A stretch of 54,095 nt of DNA from Chthoniobacteraceae bacterium. Its GTDB lineage: Bacteria; Verrucomicrobiota; Verrucomicrobiia; Chthoniobacterales; Chthoniobacteraceae. This document shows, piece after piece, positions 11,584 to 31,223 of the stretch. Under the pieces are notes generated by a model, which worked only from the letters and a program-made list of their open reading frames with translations, was not told the DNA's origin and ran no database searches. A program made the translations under genes and the position numbers. The DNA is taken from the NCBI GenBank assembly GCA_031409655.1, contig JANNXQ010000289.1, forward strand, positions 1 to 54,095. The letters are read 5' to 3'. Numbering within the stretch: position 1 is the first letter of the stretch; every line of letters begins with the position of its first letter.

Positions 11584-11729
11584 AGCGTTCGAGAAATTGC
11601 CACGGACGAGATCGGCAGAGCGAGTGCAGGATGAACGGTGCGGGACTTCGACGCCACGCTTGGTTTCGCCGGGTTTGCGCTTCACGATTCGTCTTTCCCG
11701 GACTCAGTCCACCAACCTCCCACGTCACC

Positions 11730-12572
11730 ATGATCCTCGGCCCCAATCGTTACGGAAAACAGCGCGTCCGCGTGCTGAAACTCAACCGTAAACCCGACCA
11801 GCATGTCGTCAAGGAACTGACCGTCAGCACGCTTTTGCAGGGCGACTTCAGTGCGGCGCACCTTGGCGGCGACAACTCCACGATCGTGCCGACCGACACG
11901 GTGAAAAACACCATCCACGTCCTCGCCAAAGATTGCCTCGGCGAAAACACCGAAGCTTTCGCCAACGCCCTCGCGAGTCACTTTCTCGATCGCTACGCCC
12001 ACCTCGAATCGGTGGAGGTCGAGATCCGGGAGCGCGTCTGGCAGCGCATGACGATCGACGGGACGCCGCATCCGCACAGCTTCATCGACCGCGACCAAGG
12101 CGTGCCGCTGGTCTCGCTGAAAAAATCGCGGGACGCCTTCATCCTGTGGTCGGGCATCACCGATCTCATCGTGCTGAAGGCGACGGAGGCCGCGTTCGCT
12201 GGTTTCCCGCGGTGCGAGTTCACGACGCTCCAGGAAGTGCCCGACCGGATCGTTGCCACGAGCATCTTCGCGCAATGGAACTACACGGCGCTCGACCTCG
12301 ATTTTGCCAAACTCAACGAGCGGATTTTGACCACGATGCTCGGAGTTTTTGCTAAGGAATTCAGTCCCTCGGTGCAGCGGACGCTTTTCCAAATGGGTGA
12401 GGCCGCGTTGCAGGCGGTGAGCGAAATTGCCGCGGTCGAAATAAAACTGCCGAACAAGCACTATCTCGGCATCGACCTCGCGCCGTTCGGACGCGAAAAC
12501 GCGAACGAAGTCTTCCTTCCGACCGACGAACCGCACGGCGAGATCGAGGCCATCGTGCAACGGTCGGCGTGA
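11730..12572 (+). CDS. pucL: Cofactor-independent urate oxidase (uricase)
   Basis: YGK..V, PTDTVKNT, VLK.T...F.GF, DRI, SPSVQRTL, PNKHY, PHGEI. Confidence 0.93.
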   Translation: MILGPNRYGKQRVRVLKLNRKPDQHVVKELTVSTLLQGDFSAAHLGGDNSTIVPTDTVKNTIHVLAKDCLGENTEAFANALASHFLDRYAHLESVEVEIRERVWQRMTIDGTPHPHSFIDRDQGVPLVSLKKSRDAFILWSGITDLIVLKATEAAFAGFPRCEFTTLQEVPDRIVATSIFAQWNYTALDLDFAKLNERILTTMLGVFAKEFSPSVQRTLFQMGEAALQAVSEIAAVEIKLPNKHYLGIDLAPFGRENANEVFLPTDEPHGEIEAIVQRSA

Positions 12573-12602
12573 GGCAACAGGGAGGCGACTTTGGACTGCG
12601 CG

Positions 12603-13415
12603 TCAGTCTCCGCCAGTCGCCCGGCGCAAATGACCCCCGGGCTTTTTCCGCAAAATCGGCAACAGCTCGGCCAGCACGCTGATCGCGATTTCCGCCGGGG
12701 AATCCGCGCCGATATCCAGCCCGATGGGTGCGTAAAGATTCGGCGCCTGGCGCGGGGCGAGGCCGCGGCGCTCCAGCTCCTCAAAGACTCGCGACACTTT
12801 GCGCCGGCTGCCGATCATGCCGATGTAGCGGAGCGCCGATCGATCGAGCGCGGCGGCCAGCGCCTCTTGATCGATCAAATAGTTGCGACTGACGATGACC
12901 AGCGCCTCATCCGATCGCCACGTTCGGCTGGCAATAAAGTCGGCGGGTGAAACGTCGCTGATGATCTGGTGAGCGTGCGTGAAATCCCTCAGCAACTCAG
13001 GGCGATCTTCGAGGACGGTGACGTGCAGGCCGGTTTCAGACGCGAGCCGCGCGATGGCCTGCGAGCAGTGTCCGCCGCCGATGAGGAAGATGGCCTCGTT
13101 CACGATCTGGGGCTCGAGGAGCACGGTGACTTCGCCTCCGCAGATGGCGCCAAAAGAGTCCGCGTCGTTTTCGTGCAGCGGGTAACGCCGCAAGCTTGGA
13201 CCTTTTTCGTGAAGAACTTTGCCGGCGTCTTCGATCACCAAGGCCTCGAATTTTCCGCCGCCGATCGTGCCGTCCGTCTTGCCATCCGCATAGACGATCA
13301 TCTTGGCTCCGGCCTCCCGCGGCACCGATCCGCTGGTGGCCGCGACGGTCACCAGCACGCAGGGAGTGCGGGCCTCGCGCGCCCGGAGCAGTGCCTGCAA
13401 TACCCAGTTGGTCAT
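12603..13415 (-). CDS. xdhC: XdhC/CoxI xanthine dehydrogenase Moco maturation factor
   Basis: GSVPREAGAKM, GTIGGG, CGG, GGGH, YIGMIGSRRK, PIGLDIGADSPAEIAIS. Confidence 0.92.
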   Translation of the reverse strand: MTNWVLQALLRAREARTPCVLVTVAATSGSVPREAGAKMIVYADGKTDGTIGGGKFEALVIEDAGKVLHEKGPSLRRYPLHENDADSFGAICGGEVTVLLEPQIVNEAIFLIGGGHCSQAIARLASETGLHVTVLEDRPELLRDFTHAHQIISDVSPADFIASRTWRSDEALVIVSRNYLIDQEALAAALDRSALRYIGMIGSRRKVSRVFEELERRGLAPRQAPNLYAPIGLDIGADSPAEIAISVLAELLPILRKKPGGHLRRATGGD

Positions 13416-13618
13416 GGCGCTTTCACAGGCCGTGATTGTGCGCGTGGGGACGGAAATGAGGCAAGCGTGACGGACAAAGTTGGGCGTGTCCCGTGCGGGG
13501 TCTTTTTAAAAAAAGCCGCATTCAGAAACAGCACCGCTTCCTCCCGACGATTGATTTGCCGAGCGAGACCAGCCACAAATCCCCCCACGCGCCTCCCGCG
13601 CCCCCGTCATCCCACTCC

Positions 13619-14629
13619 ATGGCCGCGATCTCTCTCGACCCTTCCGCTCCCGATTTCACCCGGCGCTGCGTCAATCTCGCTGACCGCCGACTGGGCGCGG
13701 AGGCGGTGGCGGCGAGCGACGATTTCTTTGCGCCGAAAGAGCGGATGCTGAATCCGGAGCCGGCGATCTTCATCCCCGGAAAATACGACGACCACGGCAA
13801 GTGGATGGATGGATGGGAAAGCCGGCGGCGGCGGGTGACGGGGCACGATTGGTGCGTCGTGAAATTGGCGCGTCCGGGAACGATCGAAGGCGTGGACCTC
13901 GACACCTCGCACTTCACGGGAAACTTTCCGCCCGCGGCTTCGGTCGAGGCGTGTCAGGTCGCCGCAGGGCATCCGTCCGACGCCACCGAGTGGCTCGAGA
14001 TCGTGCCGGCGAGCGCCTTGCAGGGCCAGAGCCACCACTACCTCGCCGCGTCCTCGACGCAGACTTTCACCCACGTGCGGTTGAATATTTTCCCCGACGG
14101 TGGGATCGCCCGGCTGCGGATCTACGGGCGTCCGCGAGTGGAGTGGCGGGATCTGGCAAAGGACACGCTGGTCGATCTCGCCGCGGTGGAAAACGGCGCG
14201 TACATCGTGGCGGCGAATAACCAGCACTTTGGCCTCGCCTCGGCACTGCTCCTCCCGGGGCGCGGGCTCAATATGGGCGATGGTTGGGAGACGAGGCGGC
14301 GCCGCGAGCCGGGGAATGACTGGTGCATCGTGGCGCTCGCGCATCCGGGCTCCATCCGCCGGGTGGTCGTCGATACCGCTTTCTTCAAAGGAAATTTTCC
14401 CGATCGCTGTTCGCTCCAGGCGGCGGCGGTGAAGGGCGGGACGGGCGACTCGCTAATCACGCAGTCGATGTTCTGGCCGACGCTGCTCCCGGAGCAGAAG
14501 CTGCAGATGGATCACGAGCATCCCTTCGCCGCCGAAGTCGTGGATCTCGGCATCGTGTCGCACGTGCGCTTCAATATTTTCCCCGATGGTGGCGTGTCGC
14601 GGCTGCGGCTCTGGGGATTCCTTGGCTAA
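13619..14629 (+). CDS. alc: Allantoicase
   Basis: Start [26 protein letters not shown] and DGWETRRRR duplicated domains, [18 protein letters not shown] twice. Confidence 0.95.
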
Positions 14630-14652
14630 ACGCGCGACGATGAAATCCGCTC

Positions 14653-15933
14653 ATGCCTGATTTCGATCTGCTCATCCGCGGTGCGCACCCGCATCCGGCG
14701 ATCGGAATCGCCGATGGCAAGTTCGCGGCCTTCGCCGAGGGCAGCGCGCGGGAGACGATCGACGCCACGGGCCTGCTCGTCCTGCCCGGCGTCGTGGATG
14801 CGCACGTTCATTTCAATGAACCGGGACGCGCGGAGTGGGAGGGTTGGGAGACGGGCTCGCGCGCCGCGCTCGCGGGTGGCGTGACCACGGTCTGCGACAT
14901 GCCGCTGAACTCCACGCCGCCGGTCGTCACCGTAGCAGCCTTCGACGCCAAGCGCGCTGCCGCGGGGGCGAAAAGCGCGTGTGACTTTGCCCTGTGGGGC
15001 GGCCTGATTCCCGGGCATCTCGACGATCTCGAGCCCCTCGCCGCGCGCGGCGCGATCGGCTTCAAGGCGTTCATGTCCGGCAGCGGGATCAGCGACTTTC
15101 CAAAGGCGGACCTGGCGACTCTGCGCGCCGGGATGCAGCGCGCGGCGGCGCTCGGGCGACTGGTCGCGGTCCATGCGGAGTTCGATCGCGAGCGAACCGG
15201 CAGCGGCACCACGGTGCGCGATTTCCTCGACTCCCGCCCGATCGAATCCGAGTGCGAGGCCATCCGCGCCGCGATCGATCTGGCCGGCGAGACGGGTTGC
15301 GCACTGCACGTCGTCCACGTGAGCAGTGCGGCGGGAATCGCCCTGATCACCGAGGCGCGAGCCCGCGGCGTGGACGTGACGGGCGAGGCTTGCCCGCATC
15401 ATCTCGTGCTCACCGAGGAGGACATGGAAACGCTCGGCGCGGTGGCAAAATGCGCGCCGCCACTGCGCAGCTCCGACGAGCGGAAAAAGCTCTGGTCGCG
15501 CGTACTCGCGGGCGGAGTGCAAACGATCGGCAGCGACCACTCGCCGTCGCCGTGGTCGCTGAAGAGCGATTCGGATTTCTTCAAAGTGTGGGGCGGCATC
15601 TCCGGCATCCAGCATCTCCTGCCCGTGCTCCTCGACGCCGGCCTCGACCCCGAAATTTGCGCGACCTTGACGGCCCTGCATCCGGCGCGCCGCTTCCACC
15701 TCGCCGGCAAGGGCGCGCTGCTCGTCGGCGCGGATGCGGACGTCGCGCTGGTCGAAATCGGCGGCACGCAGGAGGTCACCGCCGAGGCGCTTCTCTATCG
15801 GCACCGACACTCGCCTTACGTCGGGAGAAAACTGCGCGCCTGCGTCCGGCGCACGATTTTGCGCGGGCAAACCGTCTGCGTGGATGGCAAAGTCACCGGC
15901 GCGCCGCACGGGCGCCTGCTCCTCCCGACATGA
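14653..15933 (+). CDS. allB: Allantoinase
   Basis: DAHVHFNEPGRAEWEG, GGVTT..DMPLNS.P, GFKAF, HAE, KCAPPLR, SDHSP, WGGISG. Confidence 0.93.
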   Translation: MPDFDLLIRGAHPHPAIGIADGKFAAFAEGSARETIDATGLLVLPGVVDAHVHFNEPGRAEWEGWETGSRAALAGGVTTVCDMPLNSTPPVVTVAAFDAKRAAAGAKSACDFALWGGLIPGHLDDLEPLAARGAIGFKAFMSGSGISDFPKADLATLRAGMQRAAALGRLVAVHAEFDRERTGSGTTVRDFLDSRPIESECEAIRAAIDLAGETGCALHVVHVSSAAGIALITEARARGVDVTGEACPHHLVLTEEDMETLGAVAKCAPPLRSSDERKKLWSRVLAGGVQTIGSDHSPSPWSLKSDSDFFKVWGGISGIQHLLPVLLDAGLDPEICATLTALHPARRFHLAGKGALLVGADADVALVEIGGTQEVTAEALLYRHRHSPYVGRKLRACVRRTILRGQTVCVDGKVTGAPHGRLLLPT

Positions 15934-15937
15934 CTCC

Positions 15938-17245
15938 ATGAACGAACCCTCCATGAGCTTTACCCCCGACGAAGTGGCCCCGATCGCGGCTGCCTTGAGC
16001 GCCGCGAATCGCGACTTCCTCGTCCACTATCCCGGCGAGTCGAATCACCGCCAGCCGGTGCATGTGCTCTATGGCGGCGGGCATCTCTTCAAGGCGGATT
16101 CAGCGCGCAAGCTCGGCGAGTTGGCGCTGCGTTCCTTCCAGGAAAATGCACCCGATGCCGCGACGCTCGCCGCCGCGCTCGGGCTGAGCGGCGACCCCGC
16201 TTTCCTCCAGGCGCTCCATGATCGGGTGGGCGAAAAGCTGCGGCGCGAACCGGTCGAAGACTTCCGCCTCGATTACGAAGACGGCTACGGCAACCGGCTC
16301 GATGCCGAAGAAGATGGTCACGCCGCGCAAGGTGCCCGCGAAGTCGCCAGCGGATTGGCCGCTGGCACGCTGCCGCCTTTCATCGGCATCCGCATCAAGC
16401 CGATGAACGAGGATCTGCGCGCCCGGGCCACGCGCACGCTCGATATTTTCCTCACCACGCTGCTTACCGCATCGGGCGGACGGCTGCCGGAAAATTTCGT
16501 CATCACCGTCCCGAAAGTGCAGATCCCCGAGCAGGTCATCGCCGTCGGTCATCTCCTGGAAATCCTCGAACGCAAAAACGGTCTCGCCGTCGGGGCGCTG
16601 AAGATCGAGTTGATGCTGGAGACGCCCCAAGCCATCATCGACCAGCACGGGCGGCTCACCCTGCCGACGCTGCTCGCTGCGGCGCGGGGCCGGTGCGTCG
16701 CGGTGCATTTCGGCGTCTATGATTACACCGCCTCGCGCAATATCACCGCGGCCTATCAGGGCATGAGCCACGCGGTCTGCGATTTCGCCCGCGAGATCAT
16801 GGCGGTGGCGCTCGCAGGCACCGGCATTTTTCTCTCCGATGGGGCCACGAATATCCTGCCCGTCGGCTCCCGCGAGACCGTGCAACACGCCTGGCGCCTC
16901 GCCTTCGAGGACACCAGCCACTCGCTGCGCAACGGCATCTACCAGGGCTGGGACCTGCATCCGTCGCAGTTCATCCCGCGCTACGCCGCGGTCTATGCCT
17001 TCTTCCTCGGCGGACTCGAAGCCGCGTCGCGCCGGCTCAAAGCCTTCATGGAAAAAGCCGCGCTCGCGTCGCTCTGCGGCGATGTCTTTGACGACGCCGC
17101 GACCGGCCAGGGGCTGCTGAATTTCTTCTTGCGCGGCATCACCTGCGGCGCGATCACCGAAGCCGAAGCGCTGGCCACTGGGCTGACGCTCGAGGAAATC
17201 CGCTCGCGTTCCTTTTTGAAAATTCTGCTGGGGCGGAGGAAATGA
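15938..17245 (+). CDS. CitE/HpcH-HpaI/malate synthase-like TIM-barrel protein (DUF6986-like), function unknown
   Basis: RQPVHVLYGG, DFRLDYEDGYG, GIRIK, PKV, LMLET, HFGVYDYTA, SDGATN, YQGWDLHP; starts 4 nt after allB and overlaps the xdh start. Confidence 0.7.
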   Translation: MNEPSMSFTPDEVAPIAAALSAANRDFLVHYPGESNHRQPVHVLYGGGHLFKADSARKLGELALRSFQENAPDAATLAAALGLSGDPAFLQALHDRVGEKLRREPVEDFRLDYEDGYGNRLDAEEDGHAAQGAREVASGLAAGTLPPFIGIRIKPMNEDLRARATRTLDIFLTTLLTASGGRLPENFVITVPKVQIPEQVIAVGHLLEILERKNGLAVGALKIELMLETPQAIIDQHGRLTLPTLLAAARGRCVAVHFGVYDYTASRNITAAYQGMSHAVCDFAREIMAVALAGTGIFLSDGATNILPVGSRETVQHAWRLAFEDTSHSLRNGIYQGWDLHPSQFIPRYAAVYAFFLGGLEAASRRLKAFMEKAALASLCGDVFDDAATGQGLLNFFLRGITCGAITEAEALATGLTLEEIRSRSFLKILLGRRK

Positions 17246-20200
17246 TGAGCTCAGCCGCCTTCACGCTGACCCTCAACGGCGAGAGGGTCGAGGTGCGGGA
17301 CGCGGCGCCCGATACGACCTTGCTCGACTGGCTGCGCCGGACCGGGCGCGTGGGGACGAAATGCGGTTGCAACGAAGGCGACTGCGGAGCCTGCACGGTG
17401 GCGCTGCTCGAGACCGACGCGCAGGGCCGGCCCGCCTGGCGCGCGATCAACTCGTGCATCGCGCTGCTGCCGATGTTTGCCGGACGCGAACTCGTGACCG
17501 TGGAAGGCGTGGCCGATGGCGCGGAGTTGCATCCGGTGCAGGCCTGCATGGTGCAGCACTACGGCTCGCAGTGCGGCTACTGCACGCCGGGTTTTGTCAT
17601 GTCGATGTTCGAGGGCTTTCAGCGGGACGACATGAATGAGCCGTGGCAAATCGCGGATCAACTCAGCGGCAATCTGTGCCGCTGCACCGGCTACCGGCCC
17701 ATCCGCGACGCGATGCTCGACGCTCTCGCGCAGCGAACGCCCGACGCGCGCTTTGCGCGGGAGACGGCACCGCTTGCGCCGTTCACTTTCGAGCGCGAGA
17801 CAGAAATGTTTCACCGTCCCGCGACGCTGGCGGATTTGCTCAAGCTCAAGCGTCAGCATCCCGCCGCGGTGCTCGTGGCCGGCGCGACGGAGATCGGTGT
17901 ACTGATCAACAAGCGGCATCAGCGTTTTCCTAAGCTGATCTCGACGGAAGCGGTCGCGGAATTGCGTACGATCGTATCGACCGACGACGCGTGGCATCTC
18001 GGCGCGGCGGCAACGCTCACGGCGATCGAGGAGGCGCTCGGCGGCGAGTTGTCGTCGTTCGGAAAAATGCTTCGGCTCTTCGCCTCGCGGCAGATTCGCA
18101 GTCGCGCGACGCTTGGCGGAAATCTGGCAACGGCGTCGCCGATCGGCGATAGCGCACCGGTACTGCTTTCGCTCGATGCGTCGCTGGTCCTGGCCTCCGA
18201 AGCCGGCGAACGCACCGTGCCGCTCAGCGAATTTTTTACGGGATACCGGAAGACCGTTTTGCGCACGGATGAGGTCATCAGGACGATCGTGGTGCCGCGC
18301 AAGGAGTTGGGGCGCCCTCGCCCCGAGTTTGAGTCACGGGGCGAGGGCGCCCCTACTCCTTGGACGCGCACTGCATTTTTCAAGGTCTCGAAGCGGCGCG
18401 AGATGGACATCAGCACGGTCGCGGCGGCGTTTTGCATCGAGATCGATGCGCAGGGCTTGGTGACGCAGGCGCGGCTGGCGTTCGGCGGTGTCGCGGCGAC
18501 GCCGATGCGGGCGCTCGACGCCGAGCGGGCCTTGCTCGGGCGCACGCTGGAGGAAGGTGCGGCGGAGGTCGCGGCGACGTTGCGCGAGGCGTTCACGCCG
18601 ATCGACGATGCGCGGGGGAGTGCGGAGTTTCGGCGCGGATTGATCATCAGCCTGTGGGAGAAGTTCGTGCGTGGTGACGTGGAGGATTCGCTCAAGTTTT
18701 CGCCGAGCGAAGTCTGGTCGGCGACGGATGCCTCGCGGGCGCTGCCGCATGAGAGCGCGGTGGGGCACGTCACCGGCCGCGCGGAGTATGTGGACGATGT
18801 CGCACAGCGCCGGGGGATGCTGGAGCTGTGGCCGGTGCGCGCGCCGCACGCGCATGCAAAGATTCTCCGGCGCGACGCGGCCGCGGCGCGGCGGATGCCG
18901 GGCGTCGCGGCGGTGCTGCTCGCGGAAGATGTACCGGGTCACAACGACGTGGGGGGCCACCACGACGAAGTGCTCCTCGCGGATTCCGAAGTGCTCTTCC
19001 ACGGCCATCTCGTCGCGATCGTCGTCGGCGAAACATTGGCGGCGTGTCGTGCGGCGGCGGCGCTTGTGGAGATCGACTACGAACCGCTTCCGGCGGTGCT
19101 CACGATCCCCGAAGCAATCGCGGCGGACAGCTTTCACACCGCGCCAAACTTCATGCGACGCGGTGACTGGCGCGCGGCGCTCGAAGGCTCCGCGCATCGG
19201 ATCGAAGACGTCTTCGAGTTTGGCGGGCAGGAGCATTTCTATCTTGAGACGCAGGCCGCGTGGGCCGAGGTCGATGGGGAGGGGAATGTGCTCGTCTCCT
19301 CCTCGACGCAACATCCCACGGAGATCCAAACGATCGTCGCCGAGGTGCTGCACTTGCAGCGTCATCGCGTCGTCGTCCAGGCGCCGCGGATGGGCGGCGG
19401 CTTCGGTGGCAAGGAGACGCAGGGGAATACCTGGGCGGCGCTCGTGGCGCTCGCGGCGCTCAAGACGGGTCGCCCAGTGCGCGTGCAACTCGACCGCGAT
19501 CTCGACATGCAACTCACCGGCAAGCGCCATCCCTTTCGCACGCACTTTCACGCTGGCTTCGATCCGGAGGGAAAGCTCCGCGCGCTGAAGTGCGAGCTCA
19601 TCTCGAATGGCGGCTGGTCGCTCGATCTCTCCCAGCCAGTCACGGATCGCGCGATGTTTCACCTCGATAATGCCTACTACCTCCCGAACGTGGAAGTGAG
19701 CGGGCGCGTCGCAAAGACGCACCTCGCGTCGAACACGGCGTTCCGCGGATTCGGCGGACCGCAGGGGATGCTCGTCATCGAGGAGATCATGGACCGCATC
19801 GCGCGGCAGCTCGGGCTCCCGCCGGAAGTCGTCCGCGAGCGGAATCTCTATCACGGGACCGGTGCGACGAATACAACCCACTACGGCCAGGAAATCGGCG
19901 ACAACCGCATCCAGGCGATCTGGCATCGGCTGAAGGAAACGTCCGGCCTCGCCGCGCGCCGCGCGGAGATTGCGGAGTGGAATGCCACGCACCGCGGCCG
20001 CAAACGCGGTCTGGCGATCACGCCGGTGAAGTTCGGCATCAGCTTCACTTTCACGCCCTACAATCAAGCCGGCGCGCTCGTGCTGATCTACCGCGACGGC
20101 ACCGTGCAGGTGAATCACGGCGGCACCGAGATGGGCCAGGGCTTGCACACGAAAATCCTCGGCATCGCGATGCGCGAACTCGGCGTGCCGCGCGAGTCCA

Positions 20201-20970
20201 TCCGCATGATGACCACGGCCACGGACAAGGTCCCTAACACTTCGGCCACTGCGGCGTCGAGCGGCTCCGATCTGAATGGCGCAGCGGTGCAGGACGCGTG
20301 TCGGCAGCTCCGCGCGCGGCTCGCGCCGATCGAGGCCGAGCTGCGCCAGAGCGGAAAAGAGCCGACCTTCGCGGAAGTCGTCGAGCGCGCCTACCTGCAG
20401 CGGGTGAGCCTCAGCGCGCAGGGCTTCTATGCGACGCCGGGTCTCCACTGGGATCGCGCCGCGGGTCAGGGCCGCCCCTTTCACTACTACGCCTGCGGGG
20501 CGGCGGTCACGGAGGTGGAGGTGGATGGCGACACCGGGATGAGCCGCGTGCGCCGGGTGGACATCCTGCACGACGCTGGCCATCCGCTAAATCCGCAGAT
20601 CGACCGCGGCCAGATCGAAGGCGGCTTCGTGCAGGGCCTGGGCTGGCTCACTTCCGAAGAACTCCGCTGGGACCCAAGCGGCGTCCTGCTCACCCACAGC
20701 GCGAGCACCTATCAGATTCCCGCAATCAGCGATGCGCCTGCGGATTTCCGGGTCGCGCTTTTTGAAAATGCCGAGCAACCGAACGTCGTCCACGGCAGCA
20801 AAGCCGTGGGCGAACCGCCGCTGATGCTCGCGATCTCCGTGCGCGAAGCGATGCGCGAAGCCGTCGCCTCTTTTGGCACCGCGCCCCGCCGCGTGAGTCT
20901 GCCATCGCCCGCGGTTCCAGAGGCCGTGTTCGCGGCGATTCAGAGCGTGCGGAAAGAGATGACGACCTAA
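17242..20970 (+). CDS. xdhB: Single-chain xanthine dehydrogenase (XdhA+XdhB fusion: 2x[2Fe-2S], FAD, Moco)
   Basis: GCNEGDCGACTV, QCGYCTPG, GNLCRCTGY, ATLGGNLATASPIGD, KVSKR, EHFYLE, RMGGGFGGKE, AFRGFGGPQG, GTEMGQG, SKAVGEPP. Confidence 0.95.
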   Translation: MMSSAAFTLTLNGERVEVRDAAPDTTLLDWLRRTGRVGTKCGCNEGDCGACTVALLETDAQGRPAWRAINSCIALLPMFAGRELVTVEGVADGAELHPVQACMVQHYGSQCGYCTPGFVMSMFEGFQRDDMNEPWQIADQLSGNLCRCTGYRPIRDAMLDALAQRTPDARFARETAPLAPFTFERETEMFHRPATLADLLKLKRQHPAAVLVAGATEIGVLINKRHQRFPKLISTEAVAELRTIVSTDDAWHLGAAATLTAIEEALGGELSSFGKMLRLFASRQIRSRATLGGNLATASPIGDSAPVLLSLDASLVLASEAGERTVPLSEFFTGYRKTVLRTDEVIRTIVVPRKELGRPRPEFESRGEGAPTPWTRTAFFKVSKRREMDISTVAAAFCIEIDAQGLVTQARLAFGGVAATPMRALDAERALLGRTLEEGAAEVAATLREAFTPIDDARGSAEFRRGLIISLWEKFVRGDVEDSLKFSPSEVWSATDASRALPHESAVGHVTGRAEYVDDVAQRRGMLELWPVRAPHAHAKILRRDAAAARRMPGVAAVLLAEDVPGHNDVGGHHDEVLLADSEVLFHGHLVAIVVGETLAACRAAAALVEIDYEPLPAVLTIPEAIAADSFHTAPNFMRRGDWRAALEGSAHRIEDVFEFGGQEHFYLETQAAWAEVDGEGNVLVSSSTQHPTEIQTIVAEVLHLQRHRVVVQAPRMGGGFGGKETQGNTWAALVALAALKTGRPVRVQLDRDLDMQLTGKRHPFRTHFHAGFDPEGKLRALKCELISNGGWSLDLSQPVTDRAMFHLDNAYYLPNVEVSGRVAKTHLASNTAFRGFGGPQGMLVIEEIMDRIARQLGLPPEVVRERNLYHGTGATNTTHYGQEIGDNRIQAIWHRLKETSGLAARRAEIAEWNATHRGRKRGLAITPVKFGISFTFTPYNQAGALVLIYRDGTVQVNHGGTEMGQGLHTKILGIAMRELGVPRESIRMMTTATDKVPNTSATAASSGSDLNGAAVQDACRQLRARLAPIEAELRQSGKEPTFAEVVERAYLQRVSLSAQGFYATPGLHWDRAAGQGRPFHYYACGAAVTEVEVDGDTGMSRVRRVDILHDAGHPLNPQIDRGQIEGGFVQGLGWLTSEELRWDPSGVLLTHSASTYQIPAISDAPADFRVALFENAEQPNVVHGSKAVGEPPLMLAISVREAMREAVASFGTAPRRVSLPSPAVPEAVFAAIQSVRKEMTT
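18300..18364. repeat. REP-like palindrome inserted in frame in xdh (encodes KELGRPRPEFESRGEGAPTPW)
   Basis: 24-bp arms aaggagttggggcgccctcgcccc / ggggcgagggcgcccctactcctt, matching the intergenic copy at 31160-31223 except for one base. Confidence 0.92.
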
Positions 20971-30339: not shown

Positions 30340-30470
30340 AGGCGGCTGGCGAGGGTCTGGGACGATAGTGTCGCGGTCGCGCCGTGACCAATTCTTTTGT
30401 CGCCGCGCACCGAGCCTTTCTTGGCGATGTCCATTCGCAACCGGCTGTGGTTTCTATTCCACCCCTCGCG

Positions 30471-31169
30471 ATGCTCGCCGTCACCTTTGCCCTGCCTGAA
30501 GAAAGTAGAAATTTCCTCCGCGCCCTCCATCACCGCCGCCCGGTCGCGACGCATCCCGGCTGGTGGACTGGCCGCATCGGCGACGCTGCCGTGACGGTGG
30601 TTCACACTGGCATGGGCCTCGAAGCCGCGGCCTCGGCAGCGGAAGCCCTGCTCGTCGGCGTGCGCCCCCGGTGGGTCATCAGCGGGGGATTTGCAGGCGC
30701 CCTCGATCCGCGACTGCGCCTCGGCGACGTGGTTGTGGCGGAGAATTTTTCCAGCCCGGCGCTGCTCGCCCGCCTCGACCTCGCCGCACATCGCGGCCAA
30801 CTCGTCAGCCGCGCACGCCCCGCGGAACTCGTGGAGGAAAAAGCCACGCTCCATCGCGAGACGGGCGCCATCGCCGTGGACATGGAGACCGCAGCGATCG
30901 CCGCAGCGTGCGCCCGCGCCGGAGTGCCGCTCCTCGCCGTGCGGGCGATCAGCGACCCCGCGCAGACGCCGCTCCCAGCGCCGCTCGCGGAGTGGTTCGA
31001 TCTCGCCCGCCAACGCCCGCGGCCCCGCCGACTGCTAATGTACGTCTGGCGCCGGCCGTCGGCGATCTGGCCTTTCGTGCGCTTCGTGCGGAGCCTCCCC
31101 GTCGCCCGACGCGCACTCACGGAAGCGCTGCTGCGGAGCGTGGAGATAGGCGTTGGCTTCAAGGAGTAG
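30471..31169 (+). CDS. PNP/MTA-SAH nucleosidase-family phosphorylase (HpnG-like)
   Basis: TFAL..E, HTGMG, ISGGFAGAL...L.LGD, AVDMET, AVRAISD; the TAG stop lies inside the REP arm. Confidence 0.75.
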   Translation: MLAVTFALPEESRNFLRALHHRRPVATHPGWWTGRIGDAAVTVVHTGMGLEAAASAAEALLVGVRPRWVISGGFAGALDPRLRLGDVVVAENFSSPALLARLDLAAHRGQLVSRARPAELVEEKATLHRETGAIAVDMETAAIAAACARAGVPLLAVRAISDPAQTPLPAPLAEWFDLARQRPRPRRLLMYVWRRPSAIWPFVRFVRSLPVARRALTEALLRSVEIGVGFKE

Positions 31170-31223
31170 GGGCGCCCTCGCCCCAAGTGCATACTTGGGG
31201 CGAGGGCGCCCCTACTCCTTGGA
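31160..31223. repeat. GTAG-type REP palindrome between convergent genes
   Basis: Perfect 24-bp arms aaggagtaggggcgccctcgcccc / ggggcgagggcgcccctactcctt with a 12-nt centre. Confidence 0.92.

Follow-up and report, generated by a model that had tools for sequence, protein, structure and literature searches.

An in-frame REP dimer in a loop of a Verrucomicrobiota xanthine dehydrogenase, its repeat family and the associated RAYT

Results

The xdhAB gene and its palindromic insert

The window is the whole stretch of DNA analysed, 54,095 nucleotides of contig JANNXQ010000289.1 from a Chthoniobacteraceae bacterium (assembly GCA_031409655.1; its genome is G000 below). It contains an xdhAB fusion gene that lies 3′ of a purine-degradation cluster and carries a short palindromic repeat in frame, together with a second copy of the same repeat at the end of another gene. 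The features are as follows.

11631..17245, strand not assigned: purine-degradation cluster 5′ of xdh (urate oxidase, XdhC-like, allantoicase, amidohydrolase, DUF6986)
17242..20970, + strand: xdhAB fusion gene, 1242 aa, with the element between FAD_binding_5 (190-353) and CO_deh_flav_C (379-477)
18300..18362, strand not assigned: REP dimer (REPIN/BIME-like), 63 bp, in frame on the + strand as K354-W374 of XDH
18300..18324, + strand: left REP arm with CAAGGAG foot, variable dinucleotide TT (18307-18308), 6-bp hairpin and 4-nt loop
18338..18362, − strand: right REP arm, same consensus as the left arm, variable dinucleotide TA (GTAG form)
30384..31169, + strand: PNP_UDP_1 family (phosphorylase/nucleosidase) gene, last codons and stop supplied by the repeat
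31160..31221, strand not assigned: second REP dimer copy, 62 bp, convergent genes on either side, TAG at 31167-31169

The XdhAB reading frame contains seven Pfam domains, with the Fe–S, FAD and Mo-cofactor domains complete, and runs over 1242 aa with no stop or frameshift. It scores 960 bits against TIGR02965, above the cut-off of 849.5, and 466.5 against TIGR02963, half a bit short of the cut-off of 467. The motifs compared by eye, which we take to be those of the cofactors and the active site, are the same as in the seven closest homologues. A query with the homologue P0004 returned the window gene as the single match in G000, and the gene carrying the insert is apparently intact. The start of xdh is overlapped by the DUF6986 gene of the purine cluster (15734-17245), whose product weakly resembles HpcH/citrate-lyase proteins. 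Near residue 1035, the window protein (P0001), P0002-P0004 and P0008 are without ∼20-24 residues that most homologues have.

Codons 18301-18363 of the frame encode KELGRPRPEFESRGEGAPTPW, residues 354-374, and this peptide is followed by TRTAFF and then by KVSKR. The proposal of the first-pass annotation that a REP palindrome is carried in frame inside xdh is thus confirmed, with the end of the element moved from 18364 to 18362. Its reading of the second copy also held, since the stop codon of the nucleosidase gene (frame 30384-31169) is the TAG of that copy, whose end is corrected to 31221. The arms of the second copy are perfect and its only unpaired bases are the central 31189-31190. In the xdh copy, the base that removes the stop had been described as the only mismatch between the arms. 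This is true of the first 26 bases, where 18308 (T, the other arm implying A) is the sole mismatch, but near the spacer 18326, 18328 and 18329 are likewise unpaired. Compared with the family as a whole, the xdh copy has no mismatch at 44 conserved arm positions.

Contigs of two DNA runs, X1 and X2, which may themselves be the source sample of the window, reach from unique xdh sequence on the left into the element as far as 18316 and 18325. On the right they match the flank starting at 18345 and 18338, and neither side shows a differing letter. They carry T at 18308 and no other letter at this base; hence the T is not an error of the window. No empty-site allele was found in these contigs, which can show presence only. 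That xdh is damaged or silent, or that the repeat led to a false join in the assembly, is very improbable. No contig of the two runs spans the entire element, and no match to xdh was obtained in three genomes of the same genus, so that the gene may be dispensable. Against this, both junctions are matched in both runs, the frame is free of stops and frameshifts, the motifs agree by eye with those of the closest homologues, and the gene is the only xdh of its genome and lies within an intact purine cluster.

In an AlphaFold model of XDH residues 181-480, the insert is predicted to form a coil between two strands (model positions 173-193), with pLDDT values of 63-75 compared with 89-98 in the adjoining blocks. 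The modelled FAD domain superimposes on the solved XDH structures 1jro and 3nvv with TM scores of 0.80-0.83, and an alignment to 1jro leaves a gap of roughly the size of the insert. Mapping the insert on a predicted structure, as the first-pass annotation had suggested, thus supports its placement in a tolerant loop.

The loop in homologous enzymes

The segment from YRxT to KVSKR is 33-39 aa long in 97 of the 102 homologues in which it could be measured (18 of the 120 examined were not measurable), compared with 51 aa in the window XDH. The named close homologues are from Verrucomicrobiota. In a FastTree phylogeny of 60 sequences, calculated with the loop excluded, the sister of the window protein is P0004 (85% identical, support 0.91), which has a segment of 33 aa with a short loop. 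Comparison of segment lengths with P0004 indicates that 21 codons were gained and three host codons lost. An earlier estimate of about 21 contributed residues is therefore correct for what the element encodes, and relative to the usual loop the enzyme has gained 18 residues net. As anticipated, XDH orthologues without the element, P0004 among them, are also without the peptide.

The loop is extended by at least 10 residues in 8 of 211 XDH proteins, and no peptide is common to all eight. P0002 has a peptide of the same repeat family as the window protein, P0003 has a different one, and that of P0073 looks by eye like O. terrae peptides of GTAG-19. At the DNA level, this loop of XDH holds a 102-bp REP dimer unrelated to the window element in a further genome (loci L060/L103, G061:C165:4865-4966); its family has 18 matches in its own genome and none in G000. 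The XDH loop has thus received two REP families as seen on DNA, and more as judged by peptide. About six sites in XDH are prone to insertion, and this loop is among them; at P0004 positions ∼168, 276, 324, 360, 470-490 and 636, inserts of at least 10 residues occur in 24, 3, 30, 8, 17 and 6 of the 211 proteins, respectively. Many inserts at these sites look by eye like the REP peptides in an Additional file of PMC3733652. A pattern scan of genomes gave 28 matches, among which the YR.T..KVSKR segment was present in four, three of them XDH-like and one with a palindrome, while a long-loop pattern scan of metagenomes gave 11 matches of 71-74 bases, each at or near the minimum length of the pattern.

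The loop of P0008 is of native length; its sequence KEAGRP resembles the six residues with which the left arm of the element begins, and it is possibly a trimmed remnant. One could imagine that the insertion is old, having arisen in an ancestor of P0001, P0002, P0003, P0004 and P0008, and that it was retained and remodelled there and may have a role at the FAD domain. The same-family peptide of P0002, the resemblance of KEAGRP to a trimmed left arm and the clade support of 0.95 are consistent with this, as is the occurrence of two other in-gene copies in common with a second genome of the genus (G001), so copies can persist. However, P0001 and P0002 are 80% identical and are not sisters in the tree, and both of their junctions are displaced by two residues relative to each other. 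In addition, the full match of the xdh copy to its family at the conserved arm positions is unlike an old insert, and neither P0003 and P0004 nor the set of eight long loops shows a shared peptide. We regard an old insertion as improbable.

The repeat family and its RAYT

The arm consensus CAAGGAG-NN-GGGGCG-CCCT-CGCCCC is present in 196 arms in the genome (reversed control, 0), far more than chance would give. They make up 113 elements, including 83 full dimers of 60-77 bp in which inverted REPs flank a variable spacer. The pattern is present in 5 of the 61 genomes searched. A RAYT gene (G000:C187:31226-31867) scores 83.1 bits against the NF047646 model, above its cut-off of 80. Of the 13 Y1_Tnp loci, this gene alone has consensus arms to its left and right. 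It is flanked by dimers on each side and all four of the arms are of the GTAG form. A partial RAYT relative in genome G026 likewise adjoins a dimer of this family. The family thus shows the high copy number, inverted pairs, flanked RAYT and mostly extragenic location of REP/REPIN-RAYT systems. Target duplications of 4-6 bp were found at none of the 83 dimers, which excludes a MITE with target duplication; shorter flank duplications of 3 bp and 2 bp occur at five and six of the 83, respectively.

In having a Y1 HUH transposase gene between inverted REP dimers and ∼100 dispersed copies, the system is like published REPtrons and REPIN-RAYT systems, and it shares with them a short perfect hairpin and a tetranucleotide 0-2 nt 5′ of the hairpin (Nunvar 2010, PMC2817692; Quentin 2018, PMC6006769; Corneloup 2021, PMC8266576). 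The short stem, 4-nt loop and tag two bases off resemble the geometry of REPtron Mb (PMC8266576). Unlike in REPtrons, the invariant tag is the GGAG within the CAAGGAG foot and is separated from the stem by two bases. Directly at the foot of the hairpin, only 47 of the 196 arms have GTAG and 5 have GTGG, and GGAG two bases upstream is nearly invariant. The RAYT relatives L115 and L111 keep the CAAGGAG foot with differing hairpins, and since the foot is common to related RAYTs with different hairpins, we infer that GGAG is the likelier recognition tag. The open frames that contain the relatives L115 (G000:C213:31334-34990) and L119 (G000:C102) are 528 and 1374 aa long, respectively; in L115 there are five feet similar to CAAGGAG, each next to a hairpin of another kind.

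The variable dinucleotide and the stop codon

Arm positions 8-9 (18307-18308 in the window) are hypervariable within an otherwise conserved 25-mer. The three bases after CAAGGAG are CAG in 72, TAG in 47, CCG in 18 and TTG in 16 of the 196 arms, and in the 83 full dimers the variable dinucleotide is identical on both arms in 23 and unlike in 60. As the dinucleotide that follows CAAGGAG is free to vary within the family, the TTG of the xdh copy needed no special mutation. The first-pass annotation had taken TTG for a special stop-removing change and had asked whether intergenic copies carry it too; the answer goes against that view. Of the 15 elements that have a TTG arm, 12 were not called as read through in any gene, though one of these may overlap a gene's start; 149 of the 196 arms are already free of TAG. 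TTG is found in 12 of 146 non-genic and 2 of 20 genic arms. The asymmetric TAG/TTG pair occurs in five elements, and none of the four besides xdh was called as read through.

Where the element lies inside a gene in its KE frame, three of three copies are without TAG, which has a probability of p=0.44 given the family's own frequencies. At gene ends the signal is clearer. Genes that end in the KE frame use the TAG of the element in seven of eight cases versus 47 of 196 expected (p=3e-4, a post hoc comparison). The seven genes ending on an element TAG, which include the RAYT gene, are at C128:3292, C183:7000, C183:19140, C187:31156, C187:50306, C289:31160 and C73:21459. Coupling of the variable dinucleotide to neighbouring bases was assessed in 26 mutual-information tests. 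The first spacer base gave p=0.001 in one test and no outer-flank position reached p<0.01, and a guide-target rule in which the dinucleotide is coupled to the flanks was rejected as these tests were not convincing.

A stop-free copy is necessary in xdh, whereas a special mutation is not. A single change from TAG to TTG at or after arrival may nevertheless have taken place in the xdh copy. The stronger proposal, that a TAG-bearing copy inserted and that a point change to TTG was then selected because it rescued the frame, would account for the fact that the arms disagree, over their first 26 bases, at the stop-removing base alone. It would also fit the four GTAG arms adjoining the RAYT gene and the presence of TAG at that position in one of the two copies nearest to the xdh copy (the closest TAG-bearing copy, at C230, is as near as any other, with a score of 53 of 63). 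However, a TAG copy would have inactivated the gene until it was rescued, the pairing of TAG with TTG is shared with elements that are not read through, and the clearer TAG signal is the one at gene ends. A selected TAG-to-TTG change was rejected in view of the hypervariable dinucleotide, the predominance of TAG-free arms, the frequent difference between the arms of a dimer and the shared TAG/TTG asymmetry, and we consider it quite unlikely.

Other copies within genes

By a dicodon gene model built for this analysis, 13 of the 113 elements are read through in genes compared with 415 of 600 random sites under the same rule, and 100 elements versus 185 random sites were not called as read through. 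Among full elements, 8 of the 10 genic copies have a length that is a multiple of three, versus 18 of 73 others (Fisher p=0.001). The in-gene copies occupy all three frames, and 5 of 20 genic arms retain TAG out of frame. The depletion of elements in genes and the lengths divisible by three show statistically, at the level of the genome, that selection acts as a filter.

When 20 candidate frames were scanned, ten genes besides xdh were supported by Pfam, NCBIfam or orthologues. They encode AcrB, GlpD, PabB, two DUF7133 proteins, a sulfotransferase fusion, an FtsX permease (outside the 13), an M56 peptidase, an acyltransferase and the product of a gene on C303. The rarity of an in-gene copy implied by the first-pass annotation was thus overstated, and intragenic dimers have been published for O. 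terrae. Its suggestion that the insertion was kept in a tolerant loop of a working enzyme is supported for xdh, which appears intact from its sequence. The net gain over element-free homologues is usually less than the length of the element. With and without the element, the corresponding segments are 26 versus 27-28 aa in AcrB, 26 versus 18-27 in PabB, 25 versus 17-18 in the C303 gene, 28 versus 13-15 in a C39 gene and 30 versus 14 in a C214 gene. These lengths suggest that the in-gene copies took the place of host codons, as judged against homologues 60-90% identical, for which separate deletions could account for part of the difference. No orthologue of the C230 gene was found in five genomes. 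The copies at G000:C303:12163 and C214:31946 are those common to the same-genus genome G001 (C486 and C378), one being identical and the other having three base changes.

Recurrence of REP families at the same sites is also seen in AcrB, where palindromes of three dispersed repeat families occupy the linker in four of eight homologues (loci L156, L159, L161 and L162, in G000, G015, G001 and G002). One of these families has 37 matches in G015, and another has nine in G001 and 111 in G002. At the other seven aligned in-gene sites, no second family was found.

Discussion

In-gene REP dimers are already published for Verrucomicrobia and the xdh case is an ordinary instance of them. In PMC3733652 (Di Nocera, De Gregorio and Rocco, 2013), intragenic GTAG REPs and REP dimers are described, most of them (70 rows) in the verrucomicrobium O. 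terrae. In-frame dimers are given as encoding 20-30 aa, a REP TAG acting as a gene stop is recorded and a neutral-loop explanation is proposed. A xanthine dehydrogenase of P. syringae also appears on the list, with the REP at residues 820-826 of 839. The paper describes a single same-site case, in Xanthomonas recB, and inserts in other genes of the same category are placed at different sites, whereas in the present analysis several REP families recur at one loop. A whole-file term search of Additional file 3 of that paper, compared by peptide, found no peptide of the family of the xdh element. The Rickettsia palindromic elements, of ∼105-146 bp and from Rickettsia (Ogata 2000, as cited in PMC3733652 and PMC3184786), are likewise palindromic repeats inside a protein-coding frame. 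The xdh element differs in its length of 63 bp, its cognate RAYT and its homologues in Verrucomicrobiota, and thus falls outside that class by length and host; it works like a Rickettsia palindromic element and is not one.

We propose that the xdh element is a RAYT-associated REP dimer that was spread with loss of host DNA and filtered by purifying selection, leaving a passenger loop, and we regard this account as likely. The RAYT, an HUH tyrosine nuclease, would spread the dimer by single-strand cleavage and joining, a role suggested by its position. Arrival would involve no target duplication and often the loss of some host DNA, and in the xdh loop the dimer likely replaced three host codons. 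Purifying selection would purge copies that shift the frame, carry a stop or hit the folded core, and the surviving xdh copy would have come from the three quarters of arms that are without TAG. The 21-residue insert is likely translated as a tolerated, functionless coil, and such tolerant loops would be hit repeatedly by whichever REP family is active in the lineage.

The fresher point relative to published in-gene REPs is the repeated occupation of the same loops with loss of host residues. Turnover of one loop by several REP families was reported in no paper found in a literature search without most subscription journals or bioRxiv supplements. The reuse of loops may reflect where inserts survive and not active targeting. 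More tentatively, and with slightly less than even confidence, we suggest that tolerant loops in Verrucomicrobia could be standing REP slots, in which RAYTs overwrite codons and successive families replace one another, so that loops are turned over routinely.

What is useful beyond the individual gene is a REP family for which a matched RAYT is at hand and whose CAAGGAG-NN foot is unusual, together with numbers on how selection filters insertions by frame, stop and site, and the marking of the XDH and AcrB sites as insertion-tolerant. The reuse of loops with loss of host residues bears on whether RAYTs spread REPs by insertion or by replacement. If the slot reading is true, RAYT-REP systems would be a routine engine of enzyme loop turnover.
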